This document shows positions 24 through 64,000 of a DNA stretch of 64,000 nt, in pieces. Each line of letters starts with the position of its first letter. Position 1 is the first letter of the stretch. A program made the position numbers and the translations under genes. The stretch is from an uncultured Elusimicrobia bacterium (GTDB lineage: Bacteria > Elusimicrobiota > Elusimicrobia > Elusimicrobiales > UBA9959). The stretch covers positions 29,049 to 93,048 of the forward strand of contig CAIQNV010000064.1 of assembly GCA_903873295.1 (NCBI GenBank), given 5' to 3'. The notes under the pieces were generated by a model. That model had not been told where the DNA came from and searched no databases. It worked only from the letters and a program-made list of their open reading frames with translations.

Positions 24-3000
24 CTAGTGTATCACACCTATCTTGCGCATTATTACCTTGCTGCCTTTGGGACTGGAGGCTTTTACGCGCACTATATAGC
101 CGCCTTTCGACACGGTCCCGCCCAGGCCGTTCTGACCGTTCCAGAGCACATGGTTCGTCCCCGGTTTGCCGCCTTCCGAACCGCTTGAGAATTTAAATTC
201 GCGCACCACGTAGCCAAGGAGGTCATAGATCGTCATCGACACCTCGGCATTATCATTTAAGATATAAACGATATCAACCCTTCCTTCAACCCCGCCCTTG
301 CGCAGGTCCACGGGGTTCGGATAACTGGAAAGATTGCTCAGCAATTCCGAGCCTATGGTAGTTCCGGCCGGGGTGGAAACAGGAGACCATTCCGAGTGTT
401 GTCCGGCGAAGTTCCAGCTGCGCACCCTGTAGGTGTAATAAGTGCCCAACAGCCTCGGCGTTTCTCCCGGCACCGAAGTATCTCCGATCGTATAAATGTT
501 ATTTATGGCTCCGCCCGTCTTGAAGCCGGGGATGGCCGCCACCGTCTTCCATGCGGGGCTGATGCCGACGCGCTCCTGTACCTCGTAGGACATAATATTG
601 GATTCCGCGTCCACCGCCGAGTCCCATTTGAGCGTGTAAGCCTGCCCTGAAGCCTGGCCCATGGCCACCTGCGGCTCCGGGGCGCCGGGCGTTGTGGGAT
701 AGGTGGTGTCTATGCGGTAGATCATTATCGGCATCCCGTTCACGTTAGGGACATAGCGCCCGTCGGCCATCACGCCGCGCACCGACATGACATAGCCGCG
801 GTCGGAAACGGTCTCTCCCCAGGAGGTATGGAACCCCTTGAAGGAGCCCTGCACGCCCCGCTCGACTATCTTGAACATGACGGCATCGAGCTTATTAACC
901 AGCATTATCTCATTGCCTACATACACTACACCCTCGTCGGAGAACCCTTCGGTGGACTGCACGGTGAAGGAGGAGGAATTAATGTCTATGCGGCTGACCA
1001 GCCGGGTAAAGTGTCCGGGCGACAGGGCCACGTTGGTAACCTTGCCGGACAGCGCCGTCCCCGCCGGCTGCCAGGAGTTCTTTATCCCGGTGGGATCGGA
1101 GAAGCTGTCCCCGAGCGAGAGCTCGTATGAGACCACGGGCCCGGAGGCCGGGCTCCACATCGCCGACAGCTCGGTGGCTTTGGCGGACCAGACGGAGGGC
1201 ACGGCGCCAAGATCGGAAACAGCCAGCAGCAGCTTGGAATTTTTAACGTTGTCGCCGACAAAATAAAGCGGCTTGCCGGCGCCGTCGTCTATCACGCGGT
1301 CCGGCACATAGTCCATGTTGGTATCTAAGTCCAGGAAATTATCCCCGTCTATGTCGAACGAGGGCAGGCCGGAGTTATTGAGGCTGATATTGCGGCATTT
1401 ACCGGTGCCGTAGAAGTCCAGGTTGTCCGGGATGCCGTCCCCGTTTATATCTATCAGCGGCTCTCCGGCGGCGCAGCCGGCGGGCGGTTTATTGTAGATC
1501 CAGCGGCTGGCATCGGCCAGCGGTATATTGCCGGCTCCCGTTACCACGTTGCCGCCGGCATCCAGCTTAGCGAAGGCGGGGTAGCCGTTGGAAGCCACCA
1601 TCACCGGGCTGTAAACCGGCGTCAGGGGAATAATGGCCGGAGAGATCAACACCTGGTTGGACGTCATCGGGTAGCTGTCGGTCAGATATTGGCCGGCGGT
1701 AAGCGGCAGGCCGCTCAGACCGTGCAGGTCGGCAAAGGCGCTCAGCGACAGACTGACGAGGTGCGCCATGGTGTCGGAGTTGGAGAGATCGGTGGACGAA
1801 CTGATGTCGCAGGTGAGGTGTATGATGACCGCGCCGGTCGAAATCACCAGGTAGGGCAGGTTGCCGTCCTTTATGTTCACCACGATGCCGTTCTTGAACG
1901 GGTTGGTGGCAGAATGCATCGTATAGCCCAGACGGTAGTCCGTTATAGGGTTGAAAGCGCCGTCGCCGTCATCCTTCCAGAGGGAAACGCCGGTGAGGTC
2001 TCCGTCGCCGTAGCCCGCAGTCGCGCCGCTGATGCTGCCGGCCTGCGCGAAACTGATCTGGCCTATGGCCACGTAGTCGGACAGCGTGGAAAGGCTGAAG
2101 GTCAGCATCGGCACGTTCCGGGTGTTCTTCTCCACCGATTTGGGCGCGACGTCCGAGCCGGTCACCGCGAGCGTTACGGACTGTACAGGCACCAGGCTGG
2201 AGCTGAACGGATAGGCGTCCGAATAGGAGCCCTTAGGCAGCGTATTGGTCACTCCCATATAGATACTGGGTGAAACGTCGTGGGGAATATTGACTACCAG
2301 CCAGGATTTATCGCGCACCATCAGGCCCACTTTATTGGACTTAACGGCAGTTTCGCCTATGTCGTACACGCCGAAATAAGTCTGCGGCAGCGGGCTTAAG
2401 GTCTGCCCCTGGGAGAGGGTGATCGACATCTGGGTGTTGAGCGGATTATCCTGGTCGAAGAGGTCGACCTTGCGCGCGGCGGACAGGGCCGGGTGGGTAA
2501 TGAGCGGTGTCGCGAGAGAGCCCAGTTTATCGCCCCTTGAAATGATATTCAGGTACGGCTTTCCGGAAGGGGCGGTGCCGCTGCCGGAGTAGGAGACAAG
2601 TTCGGAGTCGCTGAGATAGAGGCGGCCTTCGGACGGGAAGCCGGCAGTGGATTGCACCACCAGCCGGAACGGAACGGTGTCGGTGGAAGTGAAGAGCGCG
2701 GCCAGCGAGGTCGCGGCCTCCGAGATGTTCGTGTCGCCGGCGTCGAACAGGTCGTTCTGGTTGGAGTCCTGGTAGATGGAGACGAACTTGACGTCGGTGT
2801 TCACGCCGAAGGGCGTGGTGGGGTCGTTGGAAGCGCCGGTGCGCTGCAGCTTTATGGCGCTCCAGCGGGCGTTGCCGGCCTCCGTGGCCAGATTAAAGCG
2901 GGCCATGGGCACCCCGGCCTGCGCCTGGGTCACGCCGCCGGTCTGCACCAGCGCGGCCGCCATATCGTTGGCGCCCAGCGCCACTTTGGACGGGATCTCC

Positions 3001-6000
3001 GCCACCGGCATCGGCAGGGTGCTGACGGGCCAGGTTGAAAGAGAGATAGTGTGGGGGCTGCTTATCACAAAATCCGCCGCCGAATTTATCGTAAGCCCCG
3101 CATTGGAACCCACCAGGGCGAACTGGGAGATGTCGTAACTTATGAAAGCGCAGGACGGCGTGGTGGTGACGTTGATAGCCGTCTTCAGCGCTATATTGAC
3201 GGTGCCGGAAGAGTAGGCCTCGTTGCCGTAGCTCATAAGGTTAGGATAAAATCCGATAGTGGTGGTGGACGTATCCGCGGAGTCCAGCAGGCAGTTGCCG
3301 TTCGAATCGCTCCAGACCTTTATCAGGTCGATGTCCGAATCGTTGGCGGTGCCGCGGCGGCTCAGCTTTATCGCCTCGACCTGCGCGGAGGTCTTATCCG
3401 CCTGCATGCGCATGACCAGCACGCCGACATTCTTGTCGTTCTGCACTACCGACGCCGGGGAGATGTCTTCCGGAGTAAGCAGAATATTGTTGAGCGTAGG
3501 CATCACCACGGTGACGGGCCCCTCGGCCGGCGTCAGGAACTTCGCGCTGTGGCCGGAGTTGTCCGGCCCGAAGATAAAGTTGGTCTCGGACGGGACTTCG
3601 ATGCCCAGCACGTCGTTCTGCGGCGTCAGCTTCTCGTGGGAGAACCTGGAAGTCGCGGCGATATCCATGGTCACGAAGAACACGGTGGGGGCGTTGCTTA
3701 CTACCACGTAATCCTGGTTGATAAGGGCCGGGTCGACCACGTAAATGGTCGCCCTGCCCGTGAAGTCGCCCACGCCGAAGCGCCCGGAACCTACCAGCAC
3801 GTCGGCGGTATTCGTGCCGCTGCCGGAGTCGCGGTCGAATACGCCGTTGCCGTTATCCTTCCAGATCTTTATCATGCCGACGTCGGAATCGTACCCGTAG
3901 AGGCCGGCGGGCAGCTTGCGGAACAGCCTTAAGCCGCGCCAGCGGACGCCGTAGCCGGAAGTCGTGATCGTCATTTTCATGTAGGGGAAATTTTCCGTGC
4001 CCTGGGAAACCATGCCGCCGACCAGGGTATTGGAGCTGTGGCCGACGGCCGCCGTGTTGAAAGCGCCCCTGATGACCGTAGTCAGCGCGCCGTTGGCGGT
4101 GCCATAATAGCGCACTATCTCGTTGTCCGCCACGAGGTAGCCGGACGAAGGGAGTCCGGCCGTGGAAACCACCAGCCAGGCGGAGTCCGTAGTGCCTGAG
4201 GGAAGCCCGCCGAAGATATCCTGCGCCAGGCGCGTGGAAAGCTCGGATGCCCCCCCCCCGGGAGAGAAGACCGGCTCGGTCAGCACCGTCACGGTGCTGG
4301 GGGCGGAGATGATCTCCCTGGCCCTGGAGGAGAAGGTCAGGTTGGAATCCGCCGGTGAGAAGTAATTCGGGAGAGAGATCGAGTTCTTGGAAGGATCCTC
4401 CGTCCCGGGGCTGTTCTGCGGGAAGGACTCGGTCTTCAGGTAGGCGCCCAGGTAGCGCGTATTGCCCAGCGCGTCGTTGGGCATGGCCGATTCTTTTATA
4501 TCGTAGGTGATGAAGTAGCGCTGGGAGAGCGCGTCCGCTTTAGCTTCGGCCGAAGTGACCACGCGCTGCGGAGCGACCTCCACTCTGGCCGCCAGCGGGC
4601 CGAAGATAGTGTTGCCGAAGGCGCCGGAGCCGATCATTTCGTCGCCGGCGCCCAGGACGCCGTTGTTATCCTTGTCGTACCAGATCTTCACCGTAGTGAC
4701 GTCGTTCATGGCGGTGGCTTCCTTAACCACCGTGCCGGTGGCGTAAACCATCATCCAGCGCCAGACCGCGTCGGACACGCCGGTCTTTATGGTGAAGGTC
4801 AATATCGCCTGGTCGACGGCCTTCTGCTGCAGCGTATCCCCGGTGATCGTATCGGTGGCCGTTACGATGACGGCGTCGGGATATTCCGCCACGCGGCCTA
4901 TCAGCGAAAGGGTCTTGCCGGGGCTCATGACGCCAATATTGGCGGGACTCATGAATTTGGGCGAATCGATATAGAAGTAGTCCGTGGAGCGTATGGCCAT
5001 GCCCAGATAGGAGAAATTCGAGGCATAAGCCAGGGGGCTTATGTCATAGGTGACGAAGTAATCCTTGGGCGTGGTGTAAATGACCTGGCCGTCCAGGCTG
5101 CCGTTCTCGCCTATCAGCGGCAGCACGGCCTGGCCGGACACCACGGTGCCGCTGGCCCAGGCTACTGCGGAGGTGCCCTCCGCGCCGCGGGTAAGCCCGC
5201 TGAAAGTGTTGGTAAGCACGTTGACGGTGGAGTAGTAGACGACTTCCTTCAGCGCGGGATCTTCCTGGTCGTCGTTGATTATCAGCCTGCCCGGCGCGCG
5301 CGGGAAAGGGCTGTCGGCCTGGAAAAACTTCTGGATATCGTTGACGCGGATGCCCGTGTCGTCAAGCTTCAGCGGGAGCCTGAGCGCGTCGTACGGGAAG
5401 GTCCGGAGCTGGGAGCCCGGCAGAGCCACCTCGGTATCCTTCACCGTGGTGGTGGTCTCCAGCAGGCCGTCGCCGGTGGAATCGTACCAGAGATTTATCT
5501 TAGTAACGTCGGTGACCTTGTTCCAGGCCGGCGTGTCGCCGTTCTCGGAGGCTGTCACCCAGCGGTCCAGCTTGAGCCCGCGCCAGACCGCGGAACCGCT
5601 GGTGTCCTTTATCTTCAGCGTGAGGCGGGCCACGACCTTATTCACGTCGCTCTGCGTCACGTAAGAGGGTTTGCTGAAGCCGTTCGGAGCGGAATTGTTG
5701 ACGTCGAACAGATAAACCATGTCCGAGGTGGCGTACAGCGGCACGATGGAGGAAACGATGGGGGCGAAAGCCCCGACCACGCCGTCCAGCAGGCTGACGG
5801 CCGAAGTTTCAAGGCGGGCCCCGTGGGTTACCATGGTGTCGGGGGACAGCGGCATAGGGGAAGCGGCGGCGTTCGGGGCGAACTCGTAAACCACGAAGTA
5901 CGTGCGGGTGCTTACGGTGACCATACCGTCCACGGTGGGGTTGTAAAGCGGCAGCACGAAGGTCCCCGGATCGGAGGAGTTGTAAGTGGGCGGATCGGAG

Positions 6001-9000
6001 GGGTCGGTCACCTCTTTGTCCAGAGCCTTGTCGAAGGTCCCGTTGCCGTTGTCGTCGAGGAACAGGCGCACGCTCAGCAGGTCCGCGCCGGAGCCGGAGC
6101 CGGTCTTGATTATCTTGAAGGACCTTATCGTGCCGACGAAGTTCTCCGTCCAGGCCTGGATGGCCAGGAAACCGGCGCGGTCCAGCCCCTGCTCTACATA
6201 GGCTGACTGGGCGGCGTCGGTGCCGGACTTCCACCAGGCGCCTATGTCGGTGCCTTTGATATGGACGATGGCCGGCGTGTTGCGCACCGGCGCGGTGGAG
6301 GTCGCTATCGGGAAATTATTATAAGCCACGCCCACCAGGGTGGAATTCAGCACCACGAATTCCGGGCTGTCCATGACCAGCGCGAAGTTGCTCGGCGTAG
6401 CGGCCGCTGTCGACATGCGCACCGCGAAAAAGAAATTGCGGGGCACGAGGCTGGAGACTATGGAGGCCAGCGGGACCTTAACATTGAGGTCCTCGAATTT
6501 CCAGCCCGTCAGCCCGGTGTCGTAGGTGCCCGAGGACATGAAGGTATCCACCGGCGAGCCGTTGAGCACGGTCTCACCGTCGAAAAGGCCGGGGACGCCG
6601 GCCGTCAGGCTGTCGGCGTACATATTTATCTGGACTATGTCCGAGTAGGGCAGCGTGCCGGAGTTCTTAACCAGCACCGACTTCATCGAAGCCGACGGCG
6701 CGCCTGTCGGGAAGGTCTGCATAGTGAGGCGCAGTATAGGCACCGGGGCGGGAGCGTCGGTCGTGACGCCGTCGCCCTGGTAGATGGCTGACCTGGTTAT
6801 GCCGATAGAAGTTTTGGCTGCCGGCATCGGGTCCTCGGGCGCGATATCCCTCGGGGTCACCACGAGACCGGCCAGCACTACGTCCGCGCTGGAGTACTGC
6901 GTCAGGCCGCCGCGGCCGCTGTCGCCGGTATAGCCGAAGATCGCGGGGGTATTGTAATCGGTCGCGTTCACCTTCAGTGACTCCACTAACGTATCCTGCA
7001 CCAGCAGCTGGTGCTCGCCGCGGTCGTCCGGAGTGAAGGTGTAGTCGGTAGTATTCGGCGGAGGAAAAGCCCACAGATCGAACCAGCCCTTCCCGTTGGC
7101 GGACATTTTTATCTTGCCTGTATAATACCTGCCGTTCATGGCATCGCCGGTGGCTATGTTGCCGAACTGGTCGCGGGCGCGCACGGTCAGGTAGCCGGGA
7201 GAGTTCACGCGCAGCGGACTGCTCAGCGTGTAGTTGTGGTGAAGCGTGAAATAGGTAGCGACGTCGGGAGTGATATACTGGCCCTGGCTTATGGCCGGCA
7301 GCGTCACGCCGTAGAGGGAGATACCGGCATTGGCGATGATAGTGGCCGTGCCCACCTGAGTGTCCCAGACGTAAATGCTGGCGTAAGAGTAACCCGGCGG
7401 GATGTTAAGGGAAACAGTACTAATAAGCGACTTCCAGGCGGGGTTCGTGGAAAGCACCGGCGAGGACGGGTCCACGCCGCCGCGGGTAGTGTTCCGCAGC
7501 GACGAGAAGCGCACCGTAACATCCGCGGAGGTGGTGGTATTGTTCTCGTAGCGGTCCCTGAGCACCACGGTTAATACGGTAGTTGTGGATACGCCTGCCG
7601 CGGCGGGCGGGCCGACGGAAAAGCCTTCATACTGCAAAGTAGTGCCGGCCACCAGGCGGCGCGGCGGGGTATAGAACAGCATATGGTCCGGCTGCGCCGG
7701 CCTGACGGTATAAGAGGAAACGGCCGGGATCCAATTCCTGACCAGCTTGGTGTTCACGGTCAACTGGTGCGTGGGCGAGGAGGTCAGGGTATCTATCAGA
7801 TAGAAGCTGGTGGAAGCCTGCTCCAGCGACATCCTGGCCGTGCCGGGCTTGGACACAAAGCCGACCGCGTCGGGAGCGGCGAATTTCACGTCGCCAAGAG
7901 AGGTGGAGTTCAGGGCAAAAGCGACCCCGGCGCCGACGGAATCCTCCTGCCCGCTCATCAGGGGGGTGGGATTGCCGTAAATATCCTCTATGGACAGCAT
8001 GAACCGCTGCGAGATCACGCCCGCCGTCAGTATCTGACCGGCGTTCTGGCTTACGTTGATGCGGGAAGTTATGTCCGGCAGGATCGTAACCGACTGGGTA
8101 GAGGCGAACCAGCTCTCTCTCTCCGGCACGGAAAGCTTCAGGATGGGCCTGACCGGCGCGGCCGAGGAGGCATAGACGCCGGAGGCCGTGGTGTCAAGAT
8201 AATAAAAAGCGGTAGCGTAGGCATTGAGCGGTATCGCCACATAAGATACCGTAGAGGCGAATACCGGCGGAAAGGCGCCGAAGGCGATGCCGCTTGACGC
8301 CGAGAAGGAGAACGAATCGTTCAGCCTAGAGGCCTGGCGCGTATAGGTGGAGAGCAGCACCTGCACCGGCACCGTGGCCACGGAAGGGTTGCTGAACAGG
8401 TCCCGCAGCTCGGCCTTGAACGCCTGAGCGTCGCCAAGTATGTTCGTGATCTTCCCTGCTGTCATTGAGCGCGGAGCGTTGCCGAAAGCCACCTGGGCCA
8501 CTTCCGCCGGGTTGACGCGCAGCTGATGCGTAGTTTTGTTAGCGCTCTTGCCGTCGCCGAAGCTGGCCTCCAGCTGCCAGTAGCCGGGCCTGCCGCCCTC
8601 GTAACTGTTTTTATCCGGGGACAAGCCGGAATAGGAGGAAGTCCTGTCGTGATAGCGGAAGGACGCCCTGCTCTGGGTCGGCTGTATGGTGACGGCGGAA
8701 ACAAACAACTCGTTAGCCGTATCGCGGAAGCCGTAATCGCCCGCGCTGACGGGAGTGCCCATGACCCGGCCCAGCCCGGTATGCACCGCCACCTGCTCCG
8801 CGGGCAGGTTCAGGGAAACGTCGGTCTGCCCCTGCTTGGTCACATTGTCCCAGTCGTCGCGGCGCTCCACCGTGAAGGACGCGCCCGTTCCGGCCATTTC
8901 CTTTATCCCGGCCATAGCCTCGGCCTGGCTGGAGACATAGACCAGCTTGGAAGGCACGCCGCCGGTGGTGATAAGCTGGCCGCTAAGATTCTGCCTGGCT

Positions 9001-55062: not shown

Positions 55063-55150
55063 GTTTCCTCCATTACTCGCTTAGGCGCCGTTCCGGGGGC
55101 TTCGCCCGCCGGACGGCCGAAATAAATAACAGCGGGCGGGCCCGGTTGCT

Positions 55151-55179
55151 AATATAATACATAATTTGGGGATTGAAAA
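55151..55179 (-). promoter_or_regulatory. Sigma70-like promoter candidate upstream of the small membrane protein / pseudo-receiver regulator genes
   Basis: On the minus strand: TTTTCA (complement of 55174-55179), a 17-nt spacer, then TATATT (complement of 55151-55156). Confidence 0.3.
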
Positions 55180-55192
55180 TCGAAGATAGAAG

Positions 55193-55226
55193 ACCGGGTC
55201 CGGAATCTTAAATCCGGAATCCCGGG
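55193..55226 (-). terminator. Hairpin immediately after the HAMP-sensor gene stop
   Basis: The arms are ccgggtccgga and tccgga(at)cccgg, an 11-bp stem with a 2-nt bulge and 8-nt loop. On the minus strand it is followed by the T-rich tail tcttctatcttcgatttt. Confidence 0.4.
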
Positions 55227-55228
55227 CT

Positions 55229-56344
55229 CTACACGTTTATACTGGCTTTAGGGTAGAACAGGATCAGCGTGCGGTTAGTCTCCGCCGTCTGCCCCACATG
55301 CAGCACTTTCACGTTCAGGTTCTGGTTCTTGAAGACGGTCTCGCCCTCGACCGGCTGGTCGGGCATCTCAAAGGCCTGTCCCACCAGGCGCAGCAGCGTC
55401 TGCTGCTGGCTGTCCACCACGTCGAGCAGGTGGATGTTCTTGATATCCATCCCGGAGGTAAGCTCGAAATTGGCGTAAAGGATGCTGTTGTTCTCGTCAA
55501 CCACTATCACGTAGTTGCTGGCGGGCACGATGATGTTCAGCAGGGAGCGCCACCAGCGCTGCTCCGCCTCCTTGTAGGTGCGGTCCCTGTTGGAAATTCC
55601 GTCTATCTCCGTCTTCATCTTCCCCATCAGCCGCGTAATGGCCCCGGAGAGGTCCCCGAACTCGTCGGAGCGGGCCGGGAAACGCAGGTCGAAGTTCTTA
55701 AGCGAAACGCTTTCCACGCTGTCGCGCAGCGAATCCATGGGGGAGATGACGTAATGGTGGAAGAAGAAATAGAGCGGCAGGCCCAGAAGAAAAAGCACGC
55801 CGACGGCGCCGAACACGTACTTGCGCATGGCGGAGCCGATAAGCACCTCGGCGCCGGCCCTGGACACCATCATATCTATTATGCCGATGATCTCGCCGCG
55901 GACCGAGAACGGAATAGCTATCTCGTAAAAAGGCTCGCCCTTCACCTGGCGCACCTTCGGCATCTTTGAGAGGTAGGCCTGCGCGATGGCGTCGGTGGGC
56001 GGGGGCACCTGCTTCTGCAGCTCGTCCCAGCCCATGCCCATGAACCGGGATTCCTTATGCCAGCGCACCTTGCCCTGGCGGCTGAGATAGATCAGGGAGG
56101 TAATGCGTTCGTCTTTGGCCAGCGACTGCATGATGTCGTACTCCTCGAAAGAGATGGCGTTGGAATTATTGAGCAGGCCGTTGCGCAGGGTGGGCGCGTA
56201 AACCTTGACGGTCTCTATGACGTCCTGCTTAAGCTTCTCGTCGAAGGTCCACTTGAAGAGATTGTAATAAAAGATGCCGCCCAGGAACATCACGTAGATG
56301 CCTATGCCGACGAACCACATTAGCCATTTTACGGTAAGCCGCAT
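55229..56344 (-). CDS. Membrane sensor-like protein (2 TM, HAMP, PAS-like C-terminus, no output domain), 371 aa
   Basis: I chose ATG 56342-56344 (MRLTVKW...) with GAGGG 7 nt upstream; the track start is a TTG. TM1 is WLMWFVGIGIYVMFLGGIFYY, then a ~150-aa external region and TM2 FGAVGVLFLLGLPLYFFF. HAMP: HHYVISPMDSLRDSV...FGDLSGAITRLMGKM. A ~110-aa alpha/beta tail follows, with no H-box or ATPase motifs. Confidence 0.7.
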   Translation of the reverse strand: MRLTVKWLMWFVGIGIYVMFLGGIFYYNLFKWTFDEKLKQDVIETVKVYAPTLRNGLLNNSNAISFEEYDIMQSLAKDERITSLIYLSRQGKVRWHKESRFMGMGWDELQKQVPPPTDAIAQAYLSKMPKVRQVKGEPFYEIAIPFSVRGEIIGIIDMMVSRAGAEVLIGSAMRKYVFGAVGVLFLLGLPLYFFFHHYVISPMDSLRDSVESVSLKNFDLRFPARSDEFGDLSGAITRLMGKMKTEIDGISNRDRTYKEAEQRWWRSLLNIIVPASNYVIVVDENNSILYANFELTSGMDIKNIHLLDVVDSQQQTLLRLVGQAFEMPDQPVEGETVFKNQNLNVKVLHVGQTAETNRTLILFYPKASINV

Positions 56345-56454
56345 AAATTCGCCCTCAGACAAAAGGTGGATAGTGCTGTTAAAATTCTACAAAACGCGCG
56401 TTACGAACTTGTTACAAAACAATTAATAGCTGTGAGTGCCCGGCGGCGGAAAAA

Positions 56455-56578: not shown

Positions 56579-57895
56579 TTACTGCCCGCCGGAAAGTATC
56601 GACTCTATGCGCTTGAGGCCGGCCGCCGCGTCGGCGTTGCCGGGGTCGAGCTGCCGGGCGATGGTCCATTCGTCGCGGGCTTTGTCGTAGTTGGAATTCT
56701 GGAAGTATTTGATGCCTTCCATGTAATGGCTCTGCGCGGCCAGGCGGTTCTCCTCGCTTACGCCCTGCGGCTTTTTGCCGACTTCCTCCACGGCGACGCC
56801 TTTGCGCTTGGCCTCGGCCTCGGCGGCTTTGCGGTCCGCCTCCTCTTTCGCGCTCTGCTCTTCCTCCGCCTTCGCGCGGCGAGCGGCCTCTTCCGCGCGG
56901 TGCCTCTTTTCGTCGCCCTCAAGCTTCATCTGCTCGCGGGCGCGGGAGATAAGCTTATTCAGGTAGCCCATGTTGGCGGTATAAGGTTTGGCTTTATCCC
57001 ACTCGCCGATAGCCTCGGGGTAGCGGCGGGTGCCGTAAAGCTTCTTGCCGGCGGCCAGATAACCGTTCTCGATCTCGGCTCTGACCTCGGCCATCAGCTT
57101 ATTGGCCTTGGAATCGCCCGGCTGCACCTCCAGCGCGCGGCGCAGGCCCTCATAGGCGTCCTTAAGACGGCCCTGGGCGTAAGACTCCAGCGCCGCCTTA
57201 AGCTGATCGTTAGCCTTCTGCTGGCGCAGTTCGTCCTCTATGCGGGTGATCCACGCTATCGTGAGGGCGTCCCTGGGCCTTATCAGCAGGGCATTGTAGA
57301 AATTATCCAGCGAGTTTTTCAGGTCCCTGACCTGGTAGTCCTGCGAGCCCTTCTGGAAATAATAATCCTTCAGGTCTTCCTTCATCTTGGAAAGCCAGTA
57401 TTTGGCTTTGATATTGTTAGGGGAAAGCTTAACGACCTCCAGCATTTTGGCGTGGGCCTCCTCGATGCGGCCCTCGGTATAATAGGAAAGGGCCGTCTTA
57501 AAGCGGTCCTCTATCATCAGCTTTTCGCTCATGCCCGGCTTCGCGCTGCCCCGCAGCTGGTTGGAGGCTTCCAGGAGCATCTGCGCGTCCTGGTAGTTGG
57601 GGTCGATGGAAATTATCTTCAGCGCCAGGTCCTTGGCGTCCTCGTAGTTGCCGTTGCGGTAATACTCGTAGGCGTTCTCATAAATATTATCCAGCATATT
57701 GCCCTGCAGCTTCTGTTTCTCCAGGCGCACCAGCTCCAGGAATTTCCGCTTTTCATCCAGCTCGTTCAGCGCCCCGAGGCCGGTTTTCTGCAGGTCGAGG
57801 AAAAGCGACTCCTCGCTTTTTGCGCGCTTGGACTGCGCGGAAGCCGGGGCGCAAAGCGCCGCCAGGAAAATAACCGCCATAAATATATTGGTCAT
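56579..57895 (-). CDS. Secreted TPR-repeat protein with a charged coiled-coil segment (possible TadD-like role), 438 aa
   Basis: Signal peptide: MTNIFMAVIFLAALCAPASA/QS. It has multiple 34-aa TPR-like units (e.g. YEYYRNGNYEDAKDLALKIISIDPNYQDA, ALSYYTEGRIEEAHAKMLEVVKLSPNNIKA, GIKYFQNSNYDKARDEWTIARQLDPGNADA) and a Lys/Glu/Ala-rich stretch RHRAEEAARRAKAEEEQSAKEEADRKAAEAEAKRK. It lies directly downstream of tadC. Confidence 0.8.
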   Translation of the reverse strand: MTNIFMAVIFLAALCAPASAQSKRAKSEESLFLDLQKTGLGALNELDEKRKFLELVRLEKQKLQGNMLDNIYENAYEYYRNGNYEDAKDLALKIISIDPNYQDAQMLLEASNQLRGSAKPGMSEKLMIEDRFKTALSYYTEGRIEEAHAKMLEVVKLSPNNIKAKYWLSKMKEDLKDYYFQKGSQDYQVRDLKNSLDNFYNALLIRPRDALTIAWITRIEDELRQQKANDQLKAALESYAQGRLKDAYEGLRRALEVQPGDSKANKLMAEVRAEIENGYLAAGKKLYGTRRYPEAIGEWDKAKPYTANMGYLNKLISRAREQMKLEGDEKRHRAEEAARRAKAEEEQSAKEEADRKAAEAEAKRKGVAVEEVGKKPQGVSEENRLAAQSHYMEGIKYFQNSNYDKARDEWTIARQLDPGNADAAAGLKRIESILSGGQ

Positions 57896-57951
57896 AAGTA
57901 AGTGGTAAGGATCAGGCGGTAAGCGGCAAGTTCTTAATTCTTGATCCTTTC
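57896..57951. repeat. TAAG-rich intergenic element, copy 2
   Basis: The sequence is aagtaagtgGTAAGGATCAGGCGGTAAGCGGcaagtTCTTAATTCTTGATCCtttcc. It contains the inverted repeat aaggatca (57907-57914) / tgatcctt (57942-57949) and fills the whole tadC-TPR gap. Confidence 0.6.
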
Positions 57952-58851
57952 CTAAAACGGCATTCCTCCCGTTATCAGGTCGCTTATCATAGGGGCCAGC
58001 ATCAGTATGAACACCGTCGGAAAAATAAAGATGAACAGCGGGATGAGCATCTTGGTGGAGGCCTGCGCGGCCAGCTTCTCGGCCTTGTTAAGGCGGCGGA
58101 AGCGCATATCGGCGGAATAGTTGCGCAGCAGCTCCACCAGGCTGGTGCCCAGCTCGTCCGACTGCACGATCAGGCCCACGAAGGAGCGCACTTCCTGCAG
58201 GCCGGTGCGCATGGACAGGCGCCGCAGCGCGTCGCGGCGGGCGTAGCCCAGCTGGACCTCGTTGATGGTCTTCTCTATCTCCATTTCAAGTCCGGTCTTG
58301 ACCGGGGCGATCTTGACGATGCGGTCGAAAGCGGTCATATAATCCAGGCCCGACTCTATCATCAGCGCCCCGAGATCGACGAAGGTGGGGAAGTTGCGGA
58401 TGATGTCTTCCTGGCGGCGGCGTATGCGGCCGGAGTAAATAGCGGCGTCGGGCAGCAGGAAGCCCAGCGGCGCGAAAATAACGGAGAACGGGGACTGGCT
58501 GAGCGCGTAGGCCATCACCGGCAGCGCGGCGCCGGCTATAAGCTTGAGGTGCAGCATCTTCAGCGGATTGGTGCCGTGCGGACTGCCCAGCAGCATAAAG
58601 GTCTCTTCCAGCTTCTTCTCCATGCCCAGCTGCCTGGCGAAAAAAAGATCCAGCTTGTCCCAGAAACTCTTGCTGCCTTCAAGCTTCGAGAAGGCGGAGG
58701 TTTCCCTCCCCTCCATGTCGCTGATGTCGCCTATCGCGGAGCGGGCCTCCTCGCGCGGGGCGAAAAAGCGCTGCACCGCCGTGAAGACGGCGAAGGAGCC
58801 TATCATGGAGACTATGATAAGCAGCACGCTGGTTATTTTATCAGGGCTCAT
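57952..58851 (-). CDS. tadC: TadC-like pilus-assembly inner-membrane platform protein (T2SS-F domain), 299 aa
   Basis: The GspF/T2SSF-type core reads IIRNFPTFVDLGALMIESGLDYMTAFDRIV...LGYARRDALRRLSMRTGLQEVRSFVGLIVQSDELGTSLVELLRNYSADMRFRR...MLIPLFIFIFPTVFILMLAPMI. Its start overlaps the tadB stop (ATGA). Confidence 0.8.
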   Translation of the reverse strand: MSPDKITSVLLIIVSMIGSFAVFTAVQRFFAPREEARSAIGDISDMEGRETSAFSKLEGSKSFWDKLDLFFARQLGMEKKLEETFMLLGSPHGTNPLKMLHLKLIAGAALPVMAYALSQSPFSVIFAPLGFLLPDAAIYSGRIRRRQEDIIRNFPTFVDLGALMIESGLDYMTAFDRIVKIAPVKTGLEMEIEKTINEVQLGYARRDALRRLSMRTGLQEVRSFVGLIVQSDELGTSLVELLRNYSADMRFRRLNKAEKLAAQASTKMLIPLFIFIFPTVFILMLAPMISDLITGGMPF

Positions 58852-60407
58852 ACGCGTATCTTCCCGAGGCTGGACACTACCTTCATGCCGATGGCCACCC
58901 AGACGACGCAGAAAGCCGCGGTGGCCATGCCCAGCGGCGTGCTGTAGAACTTTATCATGGTCTCGGGCTGGAACATGAACATTACGCCCACCATCACCCA
59001 GGGCATGATGCCGACGACGATGGATTGGATCTTCTGCTGGGCCGTCATGGCCTTGGTTTTTTCCTCAAGCTTGGATTCCTCGCGGATGTCCACCACGATG
59101 CGCTCGAAAACTCTCGTCAGGTTGCCGCCCATCTGGCGCTGCAGCACTATGGCGCGTATCATGTAGGCGAGCATCTTCGACTCCACGCGCTCCTCCAGCA
59201 CGCCCAGGGCTTTTTCAAAGGACATGCCCAGCTGGTAATTTTTAATGACCAGGGCGAACTCGTCGGAAATGGGCGGCGTGAGGTCCTTGGAAACCATCTC
59301 GAAGCCCTGCACCACGTCGAGGCCGGAGCGCAGGCAGTTGGAGAGCAGTATCAGCCCGTCCATAAGCTGCCCGTCGATCTTGCGGCCGCGCGCGGCCTTC
59401 ATGGTATTCAGCACGAAGGCCGGGGTGCGCATACCGATAGCCAGCCCCAGCGCGCTCAGGAAGAGGAAAGCGAAGATGTTCATGGTGAGCATGCCCAGCA
59501 GCGCGAACAAGGCCGGCGGGCCGAGCACCAGGTATTTGACGTTTATATTTATGAACTGGCGGGAGAAAGCCTCGGTAAAGGTTTCCACTTTTTTGGAATA
59601 GTCGCCCATCATCGCGTTGGTCTTGGAATCGTTCATGGCGAAGAAAGCCTGAACGGCCAGAAAGATCAGGATGATGCCCAGCATTGAAAGCGCCGTGTTG
59701 AGGATCTTGGTCTTGTCGGATTCCCGGGGCGGGGGCTCGTATCTGCGCGGCGCCCTCCCTAGAACGCGGAAAGAGTCCTGGGCGATCACGGCGGAAGCGG
59801 TGACGGCGTCGGCGTAACGCCGCTGGTTGGTGCTGGAGATGGCGTCCGCTATGGACTCCATCTCCTTAAGAATAAGGACGAACTGGGCCATTATAGTGCG
59901 GCCGCGGCCCTCCATCGAATCGCCCATGGTAATGTCGCGGGTGCGGGCGCGGTAAAGCCTGTCCATGGACATCTGAAAACGTATGCGGATATCCGCGTAT
60001 TCCTTCACCAACAGGGCGGGCTGTATGTTAGCGCCCCCCGCCTCGGGAGGGAAGGTTTTGCGGGTAAGCTCCAGGTACTCGTAGACTATGGAAACGGGGG
60101 TCTGCCAGAGCGTGGCCTCGGAGATCTCCCCCTCCTCCGGGTCCCGCCAGACTTTGCGCCCCGTCATTTCTATCACTACGGGCCCCACCCACTTGGGCAT
60201 TACATAAGTGGACTTCACGCCTTTGCAGGTCATGGGGAAATTTACGACTTTGGGGTCCCTGTCGGGGGCGAGGTAATAATAAAACAGCTGCGTCTTAAGG
60301 GCGGCGCAGGAAACCTCGTCCATCTCCGCCTGCGTAAAAACGCCCGCCTCCGCCGGTTTCCCCGCGAACGCGCCAAGCAAAATTATTACCGCCGCTAATT
60401 TCTTCAT
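58848..60407 (-). CDS. tadB: TadB-like platform protein (T2SS-F domain) with ~260-aa N-terminal extracytoplasmic extension, 519 aa
   Basis: The C-terminal half reads RKIDGQLMDGLILLSNCLRSGLDVVQGFEMVSKDL...LGMSFEKALGVLEERVESKMLAYMIRAIVLQRQMGGNLTRVFERIVVDIREE...IQSIVVGIMPWVMVGVMFMF. The N-terminus MKKLAAVIILLGAFAGKPAEA is a signal peptide followed by a unique domain. I prefer ATG 60405-60407 over the GTG at 60428, which lies inside a repeat arm. Confidence 0.8.
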   Translation of the reverse strand: MKKLAAVIILLGAFAGKPAEAGVFTQAEMDEVSCAALKTQLFYYYLAPDRDPKVVNFPMTCKGVKSTYVMPKWVGPVVIEMTGRKVWRDPEEGEISEATLWQTPVSIVYEYLELTRKTFPPEAGGANIQPALLVKEYADIRIRFQMSMDRLYRARTRDITMGDSMEGRGRTIMAQFVLILKEMESIADAISSTNQRRYADAVTASAVIAQDSFRVLGRAPRRYEPPPRESDKTKILNTALSMLGIILIFLAVQAFFAMNDSKTNAMMGDYSKKVETFTEAFSRQFININVKYLVLGPPALFALLGMLTMNIFAFLFLSALGLAIGMRTPAFVLNTMKAARGRKIDGQLMDGLILLSNCLRSGLDVVQGFEMVSKDLTPPISDEFALVIKNYQLGMSFEKALGVLEERVESKMLAYMIRAIVLQRQMGGNLTRVFERIVVDIREESKLEEKTKAMTAQQKIQSIVVGIMPWVMVGVMFMFQPETMIKFYSTPLGMATAAFCVVWVAIGMKVVSSLGKIRV

Positions 60408-60422
60408 AAAAAATTTACTGCT

Positions 60423-60538
60423 TACCACGGAGACACGGAGAACACGGAGAACACGGAGATAAATCTTGCCGGAGATCTTCCCTGCATTTTCCGAATAAAC
60501 GCCTCTGTGTTCTCCGTGCTCTTCGTGTCTCCGTGGTA
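60423..60538. repeat. CACGGAGA-type inverted-repeat element, copy 3 (longest)
   Basis: The arms are taccacggagacacggagaacacggagaacacggag (60423-60458) and ctctgtgttctccgtgctcttcgtgtctccgtggta (60503-60538), pairing at 33 of 36 positions with a 44-nt centre. Each arm is built from tandem ACACGGAGA 9-mers. It lies between the ATPase gene and tadB. Confidence 0.85.
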
Positions 60539-60560
60539 TTTCCTCGCCGTTAAGCCCTTG

Positions 60561-62783
60561 CTACTTCCCCGCACGGGCCCGCTTCTGCTCCTCGGTCCAG
60601 AACAGCTCTATCGGCACGTGCAGACCGTGGGTCTCGAAATCCTTGTAGAACTTGGGCGGGTCGCCGGTGGCGGTGAAGTAACCGACCACTTTGCCGTTCT
60701 CGTCCAGGCTGGTCTGGTGGTACTTGAAAATATCGTGGATGGTGATCTGATTTTCCTCGCGGCCCGTTATCTCGGTAATAGCGGTGATCTTGCGGGTACC
60801 GTCGGAAAAGCGGGTAAGCTGCACTATCATGTGCACGGCGGAGGCTATCATCTCGCGCAGGGCCCAGATGGGCAGGTCCGCGCCGGCCATGAGGCACATG
60901 GCCTCCATGCGGGTCAGCGCGTCGCGCGGAGTGTTGGCGTGGATGGTGGCCAGCGAGCCTTCGTGGCCCGTGTTCATGGCCTGCAACATGTCCAGGGCTT
61001 CCGCCGAACGGACCTCGCCGACTATGATGCGGTCGGGGCGCATACGGAGGCAGTTTTTAACCAGGTCCCGGATGCTCACTTCGCCCTTGCCTTCGATGTT
61101 GGGCGGGCGGCTTTCAAGACTCACCCAGTGGTCCTGCTGCAGCCGGAGTTCGGCGGTGTCCTCGACCGTAACGATGCGCTCGTCCTCGGGGATGTAGCTG
61201 GACAACATATTGAGAAAAGTCGTTTTACCGGTGCCGGTGCCGCCGGAGATGATGATGTCCTTGCGCAGCTTTACGCAGGCCCTCAGGAAGTCCACGCCGG
61301 TCTGCGAGATGCTGCCTTTCTTTATAAGCTCGCCGTCGGTGAAGGGCTTGGCGGAAAAACGGCGGATGGTCAGCGTGGGGCCGGAGACGGCCAGCGGCGG
61401 GATGATGCCGTTCACGCGGGAGCCGTCCTTCAGGCGGGCGTCCACCAGCGGCACGGATTCGTCTATGCGCCGGCCCAGCGGGGCCACGATGCGCTTCATC
61501 ACCTGCATTATCTGCTCGTTGCTGCGGAACCTGTACTTGGTCAGGATCAGTTTGCCGGCCTTTTCTATGTACACCTTGTCGAAGGAATTGACCATGATCT
61601 CGGTCACGGACGGGTCGCGCATCAGCTCTTCCAGCGGACCCAGGCCCAGGATCTCGTCGAGCAGCTCGTTGATGAACTTCACCCGCTGCTCGCGGGTGAG
61701 AGGGTTGGCCGTCTCCTTGGCCAGCAGGCCGTTTATGATGCCGTCCACGCGCTTGCGCGTCTCCTGATTTACGGCGGCGTCATCGGAGATCTTCACGCGC
61801 TCGGTCTCCAGCGCGGTGACCACGTTGCGGTGCACCTTCATCTTAAGCTCTTCCCAGAAAGGCGGCACGTCCACCCTGGCCTCGGTGGCCGAGAGCTGGG
61901 ACTGCGCCTGGGGGGTCGGCGCGGCCGCGGGCGCGTCCTTCGCGGTCTGGCGCCAGAGCATGTCGGAGCCATGGGCGAATTCTGCGGCGGGAACGCTCGA
62001 AACCCACTGCTTCTCGGCGGGCTTAAGCTCCGCCAGGCGCCCCAGCAGCACGCGCAGGATGCGCACCCACTGGGTATTGGGCTGCTCGGCGATCAATATC
62101 TTGTTCTGGTTGGCGTAGGCGGGAAGGGCGTCCTCCCAGGGCATGAAAGCCAGGATGTCTTTGCCCATCTGCTTATAGAATTTCTCAACTTCCTTCGGCC
62201 CGACGGCGCCGGGCATGTCGAACAGGTTCGCCACCACCTCGAACTTACTCATCGGGAAGTGCAGTTCGTTTATCTCCCGGAAAATGCCGGCCGTGGCGTT
62301 AAGCGAGGAGACGTTGGAATTTGAAACCCAGAACACCAGGTCCGAAATATCGAAGGCGAAGACCTGCATGGGAAAGTAGGGGTCCACGTCTATAAAAATG
62401 TCGAAATTCTGCGACAGGCGCGAAAGCATGGGCAGTATGATGTCGGGCGACATCTTAGCCACGTCCTGGCGGCGCTTGCTCAGCGGCAGCACCCCGACGC
62501 CCCACTGCGAGATGGGGATCTTACCCTTGAGAAGGGCTCCCAGCGCGCCCACGGATTCCCGCCCCAGCTGGCTGATGATCTCGGCCATGGAAGGCGGGTT
62601 AAGGCCCAGCAGCTGTGCATGCTCCGCGCGGCACATGGGGTCGAGCGGCAATATCAGCACGTTGCGCTTCTGGTAATTGGCCCAGGCCAGGGCCAGATTC
62701 ATTACGACGGAGGTCTTCCCCACGCCCTCTTTAGGGCCGGAGAAAGTTATAACCCGCGGGGCAATATTAAGTTGTTCTTCCAT
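60561..62783 (-). CDS. tadA: Fusion protein: TadZ/CpaE-like ParA/MinD-type domain + TadA/CpaF secretion ATPase, 740 aa
   Basis: The N-terminal ~265 aa resemble a ParA/MinD-like fold: [40 protein letters not shown] (deviant Walker A), ...DIFIDVDP.... After a Pro/Ala/Gln linker comes the CpaF/VirB11-type core: [19 protein letters not shown], Walker [19 protein letters not shown], Walker B/Asp box [14 protein letters not shown], His box [12 protein letters not shown]. Confidence 0.85.
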
Positions 62784-62808
62784 AGAAATCGGCTCAACGG
62801 CTGCCCGG

Positions 62809-63531
62809 CTACTTTATAATATCGAAAGTCACGAAAAGGAACAGCGAGCTCTGCTCCTCTACGATGTCGGTGGAGCTGAAAAGGGCGCCTATCAGCGGCA
62901 GGCTGCCCAGGATCGGCACGCGTTTCTTTGAAACGTTGCGGTTGCTGCGCTTGAGGCCGCCTATCACCAGCGTTTCGCCGCTCTTCATCTCCACCTCGGT
63001 CATTATCTGCCTGGTTATCATGGACGGGATAGTGGTGCCGGAAACTATGACGGGCTTCGAATAGTCCGGGTTCGAGACCTCCAGCTGTATCTGTACGTCC
63101 ACGGTATCTTTCTTCTCGGCGAGCACCACGGGCAGGACCGTCAGTATCACGCCGAACTTCTTGAACTCGGCGCCGACGCCGGACTGGTTGGCGTAGGGCA
63201 CCGGGATCTCGCCGCCGACGGTGAAATTGGCCTGGGTGCCGCTTTTGGTTATGACTTTCGGATTGGACAGTATCTGCGCCTTGCCCTCCGTCTCCAGCAG
63301 TTTGAGCGTGGCGGTCAGCGCCGTCTTTCGCTCGAAGTCGCCCAGTGTGATTATGCCCCCGATGCTTTTTTCGCTGAAGTCCAGCAGCTCGCCCCAGGAA
63401 AAGCCGCGCGTTTTCTGTATAGAGCCGCTTATCTCCACGATGTCGGCGCTGACGGCCACCATCTGCGTGGACTCGGCGCCCGCGAGAGCGGGCAGGGCCA
63501 GTGCGGCCAGCACAAGGATCAGTTTTTTCAT
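62809..63531 (-). CDS. cpaC: Minimal secretin (CpaC/RcpA-type C-domain only), 240 aa
   Basis: Signal peptide: MKKLILVLAALALPALAGA. The secretin core reads LKLLETEGKAQILSNPKVITKSGTQANFTVGGEIPV...FKKFGVILTVLPVV...TRQIMTEVEMKSGETLVIGGLKRSN...VPILGSLPLIGALFSS...LFLFVTFDII. Only ~50 aa separate the signal peptide from the core. Confidence 0.8.
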   Translation of the reverse strand: MKKLILVLAALALPALAGAESTQMVAVSADIVEISGSIQKTRGFSWGELLDFSEKSIGGIITLGDFERKTALTATLKLLETEGKAQILSNPKVITKSGTQANFTVGGEIPVPYANQSGVGAEFKKFGVILTVLPVVLAEKKDTVDVQIQLEVSNPDYSKPVIVSGTTIPSMITRQIMTEVEMKSGETLVIGGLKRSNRNVSKKRVPILGSLPLIGALFSSTDIVEEQSSLFLFVTFDIIK

Positions 63532-63542
63532 ATTAAATATCC

Positions 63543-64000
63543 TTACTTGATAAGCTGCTTGAAAGAGGCTATCGCCATCGGGTGCAGCTCCACGTCGCCG
63601 AGGCCGCGCACTATCACGTCCACCGTCCCCTGCTTGACGGACAGGGCCAGGTACTGGGCCTCATTGGGATTGAGCGCCAGGCTGAGCGCCGCCTTTTCGG
63701 AGAAGGCCTGATCGGCGGCTTCGGCCGCGGCCTTCGCTTTGGCCTGGGAACCGGAAAGGCCCTGGCCGAGGTTCGAGCCCACGCCCAGCACCAGCACGTT
63801 CTGCAGGATGGTGGCGGTCACTTTTTCCTTGCGGTTGTCCCCCATCACGGCGTCAAAACTCACCAATATGTCCACGCGGTCGCCGGGCTTTATCAGGCGC
63901 AGCAGGTCGCTTTCAAGCGGCAGCACGCAGCCGCGGTAGCCGGGCGGCACCTTCACGCTGAGGCCGGCCTCGGGACTCAGGGACACCAGGGCCGAATTCG
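63543..64000 (-). CDS. cpaB: CpaB/RcpC-like pilus-assembly protein, C-terminal part (gene truncated by window edge)
   Basis: The peptide is ...VKVPPGYRGCVLPLESDLLRLIKPGDRVDILVSF...ATILQNVLVLGVG...LALNPNEAQYLALSVKQGTVDVIVRG, matching the CpaB C-terminal beta-clip/RcpC pattern. The reading frame stays open up to nt 64000, so the GTG at 63986 is probably not the true start. Confidence 0.7.
   Translation of the reverse strand, partial: NSALVSLSPEAGLSVKVPPGYRGCVLPLESDLLRLIKPGDRVDILVSFDAVMGDNRKEKVTATILQNVLVLGVGSNLGQGLSGSQAKAKAAAEAADQAFSEKAALSLALNPNEAQYLALSVKQGTVDVIVRGLGDVELHPMAIASFKQLIK

Follow-up and report, generated by a model that had tools for sequence, protein, structure and literature searches.

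A probable lineage-conserved surface-appendage super-locus of Elusimicrobiales with a split Tad locus, a short FtsH paralog, and a riboswitch upstream of a giant gene

Described filament and giant-protein systems

Elusimicrobia are widespread, mostly uncultivated bacteria, and to our knowledge their attachment to surfaces is essentially undescribed. Tad systems have previously been detected in Elusimicrobia, and Tad loci almost always form a single compact locus (PMC6668835). Here we analyze a 64,000-nt stretch of contig CAIQNV010000064.1 from an uncultured Elusimicrobia bacterium (the window, meaning this whole stretch at its full length), which encodes Tad assembly proteins, a two-component signaling island, pilins, a short FtsH paralog, and a giant surface protein. 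The window is probably part of a lineage-conserved surface-appendage super-locus of Elusimicrobiales, with at least four transcription units on one strand. No published description of this locus was found within the limits of the literature searched. The fused TadZ-TadA ATPase, the minimal secretin, the conserved embedded signaling island, and the obligate FtsH paralog appear to be new, as do the probably inactive S41 homolog, the A20 riboswitch that would gate a 39-kb gene, and the cassette behavior of this gene.

The Tad/Flp loci of Aggregatibacter (flp-rcp-tad) and Caulobacter (cpa) have in common with this locus RcpC/CpaB, a secretin, a TadA/CpaF-type ATPase, a TadZ-like ParA/MinD module, TadB, TadC, a TPR protein, and, as candidates here, a Flp pilin with the motif G/XXXXEY and a TadE-like pseudopilin. 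Unlike in those loci, TadZ is fused to TadA, the secretin is a 240-aa core, and TadB has an extension of ~240 aa. In addition, the locus is split by an 8.46-kb two-component island, an FtsH paralog lies in the pilin operon, and no A24 prepilin peptidase gene was found in the window.

In Omnitrophota, giant genes are generally preceded by gspD/E/F, rcpC, and genes with class III signals (West-Roberts et al. 2023, bioRxiv 10.1101/2023.11.21.568195), and the parallel that an earlier annotation of the window (hereafter the sequence-only reading) had drawn, giant open reading frames (ORFs) together with Tad genes, is real. Both cases have a gene of >10,000 codons downstream of a conserved multi-gene locus resembling type II secretion system (T2SS) or Tad genes, and a cyclic-di-GMP (c-di-GMP) connection. 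The phylum is different, however, and the giant protein here has no SecA/DEAD domain according to Pfam. The second-messenger link is an upstream riboswitch here and downstream PilZ genes there; in the related locus L092, the genes downstream of the giant gene encode PorV-like, FliG-like, coiled-coil, MotA, and MotB proteins. The giant protein here also differs in having a putative C-terminal domain like those of the type IX secretion system (T9SS) and, in relatives, a PorV-like partner, and in being optional relative to the tad core. Elusimicrobia are among the phyla rich in huge proteins (PMC11573180). The likeness to Omnitrophota suggests that giant surface proteins and type IV filament machinery are repeatedly paired in phyla that have small cells and are poorly known.

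In Pseudomonas aeruginosa, the two-component system PprAB is tied to Flp/Tad pili and the large repetitive adhesin BapA in one attachment programme (PMC3510237, PMC6821963). Unlike here, BapA is encoded elsewhere and takes a type I export route, and an FtsH paralog, a riboswitch, and a fusion ATPase are absent. The pprAB genes are adjacent to the tad locus in the genome. In the Bacteroidota SprB/T9SS system, the giant, repetitive surface protein carries a sorting domain at its C-terminus and has an adjacently encoded PorV/PorP-family outer-membrane partner, and stator-type genes dependent on the proton motive force lie nearby. The likeness here consists of a giant repetitive protein with a sorting-like domain and, in relatives only, a PorV-family partner and stator-type genes. 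In contrast, no T9SS core genes (SprA/Sov, PorU, GldKLMN) were seen in the loci examined, the whole genome not having been searched for them, and the stators are MotA/MotB with a FliG-like protein instead of GldL/GldM. We know of no T9SS in Elusimicrobiota.

Gene order from the Tad assembly genes to the FtsH-like gene

Coordinates are positions in the window. All genes lie on the minus strand, and transcription runs from high to low numbers. The features from the right edge of the window to the FtsH-like gene are as follows.

56579..64000, minus strand: Tad assembly genes (Pfam, NCBIfam), made up of the next six entries
63543 to window edge, minus strand: RcpC/CpaB, partial at the window edge (RcpC E 3.7e-15)
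62809-63531, minus strand: secretin, 240 aa (Secretin E 3.8e-41; secretin domain only, no N-domains)
60561-62783, minus strand: TadZ-like/TadA fusion, 740 aa (CbiA/ParA-like residues 10-240 and T2SSE E 8e-63)
58848-60428, minus strand: TadB with a long N-terminal extension of ~240 aa (PF00482, T2SSF)
57952-58851, minus strand: TadC (PF00482, T2SSF)
56579-57895, minus strand: TPR protein (Pfam)
47904..56362, minus strand: signaling island, 8.46 kb (Pfam; order conserved in close and distant relatives), made up of the next eight entries
55229-56362, minus strand: HAMP-like membrane protein
54766-55062, minus strand: 98-aa protein (called in relatives)
53932-54726, minus strand: OmpR-type regulator
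53470-53865, minus strand: stand-alone receiver
52031-53470, minus strand: DsbA/thioredoxin-like protein
49935-51839, minus strand: dCache-HAMP histidine kinase
48678-49829, minus strand: receiver-histidine kinase hybrid
47904-48671, minus strand: LuxR-type regulator
47853..47884, minus strand: terminator-like hairpin with T-run (read directly in the sequence; missed by the pattern scanner)
47123..47386, minus strand: Flp-type pilin, ~87 aa, motif RSG/QTTVEY (Class_IIIsignal E 0.0035, sub-threshold)
45927..47084, minus strand: TadG-like protein with an N-terminal hydrophobic segment and a Cys-rich body (PF13400 match at E 0.05 only)
45335..45919, minus strand: TadE-like pseudopilin with the class III signal G/QAMTEV (TadE 20.7 bits, cutoff 22.9; E 4.7e-4)
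43492..45129, minus strand: short FtsH paralog, 545 aa (AAA E 1e-40, Peptidase_M41 E 7e-37)

We compared the window proteins by tblastn with 80 species-level related loci recovered with the FtsH-like protein (labeled L001, L011, L032, and so on). Loci with FtsH-like identity of at least 67% are taken as the closer clade, and counts refer to loci with enough flank. Down to an FtsH-like identity of 58%, the loci retain the order of tad assembly genes, two-component island, flp/tadG-like/tadE genes, and the short FtsH paralog. The series that begins with the HAMP-like gene and ends with the FtsH-like gene is intact even where the FtsH-like proteins are 58–65% identical and most other proteins are 35–55% identical. 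In one such locus (L087, 65% identity), the genes from TPR through to FtsH-like stand in equal order, the TPR gene being directly upstream of the series. In loci seeded on the fusion ATPase (L001–L003), cpaB to TPR is followed by the HAMP-like gene. TadE adjoins the FtsH-like gene in 73/73 loci, and the positions of the TadG-like protein and the LuxR-type regulator are kept in 69/69 and 48/62 loci, respectively. The genes are clustered in related genomes, not scattered, which supports the sequence-only reading. Since the same order occurs in dozens of species-level genomes, it is not a chance juxtaposition. A Tad locus split by a two-component island and joined by an FtsH paralog is, judging from its preservation in both close and distant relatives, a conserved trait of this lineage.

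For the TadZ-TadA fusion, at least 120 clusters have a representative of equal length with 69–100% identity. All named representatives are Elusimicrobia or Elusimicrobiales, as are the FtsH-like homologs, and all 80 FtsH-like loci are from Elusimicrobia metagenome-assembled genomes, mainly of groundwater and sediment. Because these three sets agree, the lineage is assigned to Elusimicrobiota (Elusimicrobiales), not Omnitrophota.

A TadA/CpaF-type ATPase, two T2SSF platform proteins, an RcpA secretin with RcpC/CpaB, and TadZ are all present. TadZ, an atypical ParA/MinD ATPase, occurs here only as the fusion with TadA, which matches the TadA family model TIGR03819 with E 1.8e-98 and 329.9 bits, slightly below the cutoff of 373. 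CpaB, the minimal secretin, the fusion ATPase, TadB, TadC, and the TPR protein would build a Tad/Flp (type IVc) filament machine. The genes do not form a single compact locus, as the 8.46-kb island lies between the TPR gene and flp, likewise in relatives. The locus is also less pilin-less than it first seems, because a second pilin set is found upstream of cpaB in L001 (6372-8416), just past what would be the right edge of the window. This set consists of 58-aa and 63-aa proteins with class III signals and a 174-aa TadE, accompanied by a 1,084-aa protein with a FlgD_ig tail; the L001 fusion is 92% identical to that of the window.

The island encodes two histidine kinases and four receiver proteins, and no GGDEF, EAL, or HD-GYP domain was found in it by Pfam. 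The hairpin at 47853-47884 follows the LuxR-type regulator and divides the island from the pilin operon. The island most likely sets the expression of the appendage genes. The DsbA/thioredoxin-like protein (479 aa, secreted) has CPFG in place of CxxC and keeps its position in relatives; its function may be connected with the Cys-rich TadG-like and Cys-tail proteins (the latter described below).

At the flp position, genes of 68–89 aa are called in relatives. No TadF was identified among the window proteins. The FtsH-like protein that follows the pilin genes has two N-terminal transmembrane segments, and a loop of ~17 residues replaces the periplasmic domain. The Walker A/B motifs, the FVG pore loop, the SRH, and HEAGH are intact as read in the translation. 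The protein thus has the AAA+ module, HEXXH, and M41 of FtsH, whereas the full-length equivalog score and the periplasmic domain are missing: it scores 475 bits against TIGR01241 (cutoff 600), with only model positions 105–598 matched. Orthologs are ~540 aa across Elusimicrobia, with the FtsH_ext domain in 0/120, and the protein is classed as a paralog-like short form that is lineage-wide. The paralog would extract and degrade membrane-embedded pilin or pseudopilin subunits or platform proteins, with a role in filament quality control or turnover. Tad pili have no retraction ATPase. The tie of the FtsH paralog to pilin genes in every genome examined suggests that regulated proteolysis is built into a type IV filament system, which would bear on subunit recycling by Tad pili.

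The sequence-only reading had counted 22 coding sequences in one orientation, and this number holds since the 98-aa ORF at 54766-55062 (minus strand) is included, an annotated gene being present at the equivalent position in relatives. Every Pfam-supported ORF between 39.3 and 64 kb is on the minus strand, and long plus-strand ORFs are antisense shadows of genes with Pfam matches. The stop/start overlaps it had pointed out agree with the ORF coordinates (1 nt at 53470 and 4 nt at 58848-58851), and its 8.4-kb two-component island corresponds to 47904-56362. Its domain labels are likewise borne out by Pfam and NCBIfam for RcpC/CpaB, the secretin, the CbiA/ParA-like and T2SSE fusion, the two T2SSF proteins, TPR, AAA with M41, S41 with PDZ, and HEAT.

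Insertions in relatives fall between conserved units, not inside them. L086 has a Y1 transposase between the two kinases (4958-5938), L010 has ~9 kb inserted between the FtsH-like and Cys-tail genes (11626-20374), and in L001 the HAMP-like gene is separated from the OmpR-type regulator by five small genes (17794-21381).

Riboswitch, S41 homolog and transcription units

Downstream of the FtsH-like gene, the features are as follows.

42021..43466, minus strand: membrane protein of unknown family ("Cys-tail"; no Pfam/NCBIfam match)
40842..41963, minus strand: S41-family/PDZ lipoprotein homolog (Peptidase_S41 PF03572 E 5.7e-28; PDZ_6 28.3 bits)
40719..40746, minus strand: consensus sigma-70 promoter, TTGACA-16-TATAAT, with extended -10 TG (12/12 hexamer matches)
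40435..40513, minus strand: c-di-GMP-I (GEMM-I) aptamer (RF01051 56.8 bits, gathering score 35; E 1.9e-8)
40266..40340, minus strand: intrinsic-terminator hairpin, ~-46 kcal/mol, with UUUUUAU (sequence and fold)
39317..39964, minus strand: HEAT-repeat protein with a signal peptide (HEAT_2 E 1.5e-33)
24..39209, minus strand: giant surface-protein gene, 13,061 aa (uninterrupted ORF)

The aptamer lies on the coding strand, within the 880 nt that separate S41 from the probable HEAT start, and is found at the equivalent place in 21 related loci. In the alignment of 21 aptamer sequences, four P3 pairs show compensatory changes on both sides, while the P2 stem and the core are invariant and hence uninformative on covariation. 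The promoter is kept with 0–1 mismatch 57–302 nt upstream of 23/23 aptamer copies. On the other side, a hairpin with a U-run equivalent to that at 40266-40340, with compensatory stem changes, is found 68–113 nt past the aptamer in 21/22 related copies; in L024, the distance is 173 nt. The hairpin in the window is presumed to be the expression platform of the aptamer. In the minimum-free-energy fold of the leader, which is ~750 nt long, the P1 3' strand has an alternative pairing, and no clear antiterminator is seen in this fold.

The position of G20 in the ligand pocket should be noted. An A occupies this position (model position 11; Vc2 numbering) in the window and in 22/23 copies overall, and the equivalents of A47 and C92 are retained, so the pocket differs from the canonical G20/A47/C92. 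A20 is the signature of GEMM-Ib riboswitches that sense cyclic GMP-AMP (cGAMP), and the Vc2 G20A variant has nanomolar affinity for both ligands (PMC6140456). Given A20 in the pocket, the predicted ligand is c-di-GMP, 3',3'-cGAMP, or both, and the riboswitch is a candidate cGAMP sensor beyond the lineages with characterized cGAMP riboswitches. Riboswitches for c-di-GMP upstream of surface adhesins are known (PMC7423583, PMC6200980). The GEMM-I riboswitches of Bacillus thuringiensis cbpA and of Clostridioides difficile surface proteins have the same fold, an intrinsic-terminator platform, and a surface-protein target. Compared with known GEMM-I riboswitches, that of the window has A at G20, as in the cGAMP-sensing GEMM-Ib of Geobacter, and differs in the lengths of its leader and of the controlled gene (~39 kb), which would be among the largest single riboswitch-gated genes. 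The second messenger would control read-through into the giant gene, turning it either ON or OFF. In L034, tandem riboswitch copies are present (14977-15067 and 18338-18420), one with G20 and one with A20.

The HEAT gene probably starts at 39964 with an ATG (MIKLCLIALLLPGAGAFA), and its product would be periplasmic. The ORF at its longest extends to 40216, and the proteins of relatives are 210–281 aa. HEAT is the first gene past the riboswitch in 15/18 aptamer sites with >1 kb of downstream DNA, and at those 15 sites it is followed by a large ORF running off the locus.

The Cys-tail protein has one transmembrane segment, a low-complexity region rich in A/G/S, and a Cys-rich C-terminus. Its start codon is uncertain, and the proteins of relatives are 422–497 aa. 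It follows the FtsH-like gene in 33/35 close loci and 0/30 distant loci. The S41 homolog comes after the FtsH-like gene in 32/34 close loci and in no locus of the distant clade; there, the place of the two genes is taken by unrelated ones that have no Pfam domain. The S41 homolog retains the fold and the PDZ domain. In the alignment with Ctp structures (9ku0), however, Met is found in the column of the nucleophile Ser, with a Ser one residue earlier, and Ser is found in the column of the catalytic Lys. The latter column has S/N/D/R in the 32 orthologs, with K in L026 only, so that the Ser-Lys dyad is missing in the window and in nearly all orthologs. For this reason, the S41 homolog is probably a non-catalytic lipoprotein with a PDZ/S41 fold, and a role as an active processing protease for the C-terminus of the giant protein was rejected. 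The "protease trio" of the sequence-only reading does not hold: only the FtsH-like protein retains catalytic motifs, S41 lacks the dyad, and Cys-tail has no recognizable domain. The S41 case also calls for caution in annotation, as the label would yield an automated "protease" call despite the missing dyad.

A terminator-like hairpin lies 3' of S41. As this hairpin and then the promoter, riboswitch, and terminator precede HEAT, the HEAT and giant genes are likely to form a separate transcription unit that is not part of the tad unit. In the operon model, unit 1 would run from cpaB to TPR; unit 2 from the HAMP-like gene to the LuxR-type regulator, ending at the hairpin and T-run at 47853-47884; unit 3 from flp to S41, followed by the weak terminator-like element; and unit 4 would contain the promoter, riboswitch, terminator, HEAT, and the giant gene. 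This division bears on the idea that pilus, generic two-component island, and adhesin are independent neighboring operons, brought together by strand bias and recent common ancestry. The separate promoter and terminator signals between the units, the variable content of the slot 3' of S41, and the insertions in L001 (five genes), L086 (Y1 transposase), and L010 (9 kb) speak for it. However, these insertions lie between units and not within them, the pilin genes adjoin the FtsH paralog in every locus examined, and the TPR-to-FtsH-like order outlasts the divergence of FtsH-like to 58–65% identity and of most other proteins to 35–55%. We regard independent operons as unlikely, though the idea keeps some weight, and prefer the lineage-conserved super-locus.

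The giant protein, its cassette and the reading of the whole locus

The ORF of 13,061 aa that the sequence-only reading had described is intact, with no stop codons across 39 kb. The protein starts with a signal/anchor segment and a unique N-terminal domain (residues ~40–550). About 61 divergent, Trp-rich, all-beta units of ~125 aa each follow (residues ~546–8432), and then a second repeat type of ~125 aa (residues ~8550–9700). The C-terminal third is mostly non-repetitive and ends in a FlgD_ig/T9SS-like C-terminal domain. Among 55 full units aligned, identity to the reference unit is 16–33%, rising to 58% between some units. The AlphaFold2 model of one 128-residue unit, with the 55 internal repeats as the alignment, is all-beta with a predicted local distance difference test score of 82, and Foldseek gave no match below E 3.7 against the PDB. 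The repeat unit is predicted to be beta-rich, and Ig-like judging from weak Pfam matches to Big_13 and Big_3_2. We make no further fold claim, because the unit register probably cuts across two beta-sandwich halves.

An exhaustive HMMER search of 1.84 billion representatives with residues 1–700 gave 83 matches at E <= 1e-3. The best match has 37% identity and the longest is 4,109 aa, full homolog lengths not being given by this search. By this count, the N-terminal domain is rare. A word-indexed homolog search with the first 600 residues was empty, probably being swamped by low-complexity words. With the last 500 residues, three metagenome loci were recovered (78–81% identity). The last 115 aa are 84–89% identical in L091–L093 and are the best-conserved part of the C-terminus; among the other proteins of the fetched loci, this domain was found in orthologous giant proteins only.

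Complete orthologs of 14,428, 12,671, and 12,647 aa are encoded in three species at the same position after HEAT, and two further orthologs at this position are truncated by contig ends. Where 10 kb of flank is available downstream, about half of the close loci have an ORF that starts ~4 kb past the FtsH-like gene and runs off the end of the locus. The proposed place of the giant gene at a Tad locus therefore stands in so far as orthologs occupy the same site in three other species, but the gene is absent from distant and many close relatives. None of the distant relatives with the tad core has it, and close relatives with the core and without the giant gene are L004, L011, L023, L027, L028, L032, L037, L038, and L079. 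In L011 and L023, genes for glycosyltransferases and radical-SAM proteins come after the riboswitch. L032 and L079 lack the entire cassette, with the FliG-like gene directly after S41, and an nhmmer scan gave no aptamer match in these two loci.

The genes 3' of the giant gene in relatives are informative about its flanks. In L092 (11719-20994) and L093 (11942-21104), co-oriented genes encode a PorV/PorQ-family outer-membrane protein carrying fused TPR repeats, a FliG-like protein of 651 aa that has the middle and C-terminal domains of FliG, a coiled-coil protein, MotA, and MotB. In L032 (12026-17775) and L079 (6684-12488), the PorV/PorQ-like gene is absent and the FliG-like-to-MotB genes come directly after S41. 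Since these genes follow S41 where the giant gene is absent, the cassette seems to be inserted between two conserved flanks, and by its distribution it is facultative and swappable. The PorV/PorQ-family protein (NF033709, 108.2 bits, cutoff 90) is encoded directly 3' of the giant gene in L092 and also in L093, so that the partner expected for a T9SS cargo is found in relatives only. The PorV-like neighbor fits the weak T9SS-type C-terminal domain of the giant protein, which suggests display by a route of the C-terminal-domain/PorV type rather than through the Tad secretin. The giant protein would be exported by Sec and displayed on the outer membrane via this domain and a PorV/PorQ-family protein.

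Alternatively, the Tad-like machine could be a type II-like apparatus that mainly exports the giant protein, with the pilins as a pseudopilus piston. Such a function was proposed for the giant-gene loci of Omnitrophota, in which gspD/E/F, rcpC, and class III signal genes precede the giant genes (West-Roberts et al.), and here at least six species, the window counted, have a giant gene 3' of a locus of this type. However, the core of tad, two-component, pilin, and FtsH-like genes persists without the giant gene in all distant and nine close relatives, and a swappable cassette argues against the filament machine as a dedicated exporter. The T9SS-like C-terminal domain and the PorV/PorQ gene of relatives point to a different outer-membrane route, and a 240-aa secretin without N-domains would be an unlikely conduit for a 1.3-MDa folded substrate. 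We consider a dedicated exporter quite unlikely. That the 39-kb ORF is an assembly artefact, a mis-assembled repeat array, is exceedingly improbable and was rejected: short-read metagenome assembly readily collapses or expands long repeat arrays, and several related contigs end within the giant gene, but the units are old and divergent (at most 58% identical pairwise), so that reads map uniquely, the frame has no stop codons, and three independent assemblies have ORFs of 12,647–14,428 aa at the same site.

Returning to the super-locus, the sequence-only reading had proposed an integrated, environmentally regulated attachment apparatus. The linkage on which this idea was built is real in relatives, but the giant gene appears separately regulated and is dispensable. 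Several observations weigh against a single surface-appendage super-locus. The Pfam scores behind the labels Flp, TadE, and TadG-like are all below threshold, with the motifs G/QTTVEY and G/QAMTEV present for Flp and TadE. No Peptidase_A24 (TadV/CpaA) match was found in 21/22 window ORFs, RcpC/CpaB being scanned only as a partial ORF; the prepilin peptidase may be encoded elsewhere in the genome. The link of FtsH to the pilins is purely positional, and the operon boundaries are drawn from consensus promoter and terminator motifs and intergenic spacing. Synteny within one order could partly stem from shared ancestry instead of selection for linkage. As for the giant protein, the matches of its C-terminal domain are weak (FlgD_ig E 2e-4, 21.7 bits, cutoff 27; Por_Secre_tail of NCBIfam 19.4 bits, cutoff 23), its role as an adhesin is suggested by analogy only, and the PorV-like, FliG-like, and MotAB genes are known from relatives only, the window ending 23 nt past the stop codon of the giant gene.

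A bolder reading, which we rate as very unlikely, is that non-flagellated Elusimicrobia have a single, so far undescribed envelope machine encoded by the whole super-locus, which would serve for gliding or attachment. Its parts would be the Tad-like machine with the fused TadZ-TadA motor, the dedicated FtsH paralog, the riboswitch-gated giant protein with its C-terminal sorting domain, and the PorV/PorQ-like partner, joined in relatives by MotA/MotB stators and the 651-aa FliG-like protein. A giant adhesin would be deployed or moved by two motors acting jointly, one a stator/FliG-like module driven by protons and the other a type IV filament motor driven by ATP. The principle would resemble that of SprB on the T9SS of Bacteroidota. 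In this reading, the riboswitch could also be a natural cGAMP sensor, again outside the lineages in which such riboswitches have been characterized.

Some intergenic regions carry additional elements. A permissive Rfam scan gave no other credible RNA in 39–64 kb besides the aptamer. The gap between tadE and the FtsH-like gene is 205 nt here and has a median of 44 nt in 73 related loci, and the gap between LuxR and flp is ~510 nt here and ~190 nt in relatives. The extra spacing at both gaps is due to stretches at 45138-45320 and 47470-47590, not present in relatives, which have in common a 35-nt repeat (94% identity) and contain inverted repeats. These stretches look like small mobile insertions or insertions resembling repetitive extragenic palindromic (REP) elements. 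Palindromic repeats rich in CACGGAGAACACGGAGA are found in three other gaps: 51929-52008 (dCache kinase/DsbA-like), 56446-56489 (HAMP-like/TPR), and 60420-60543 (tadZA/tadB). These palindromes may be REP-like elements for mRNA stabilization or processing, and one of those in the tadZA/tadB gap forms a hairpin with 36-nt arms.

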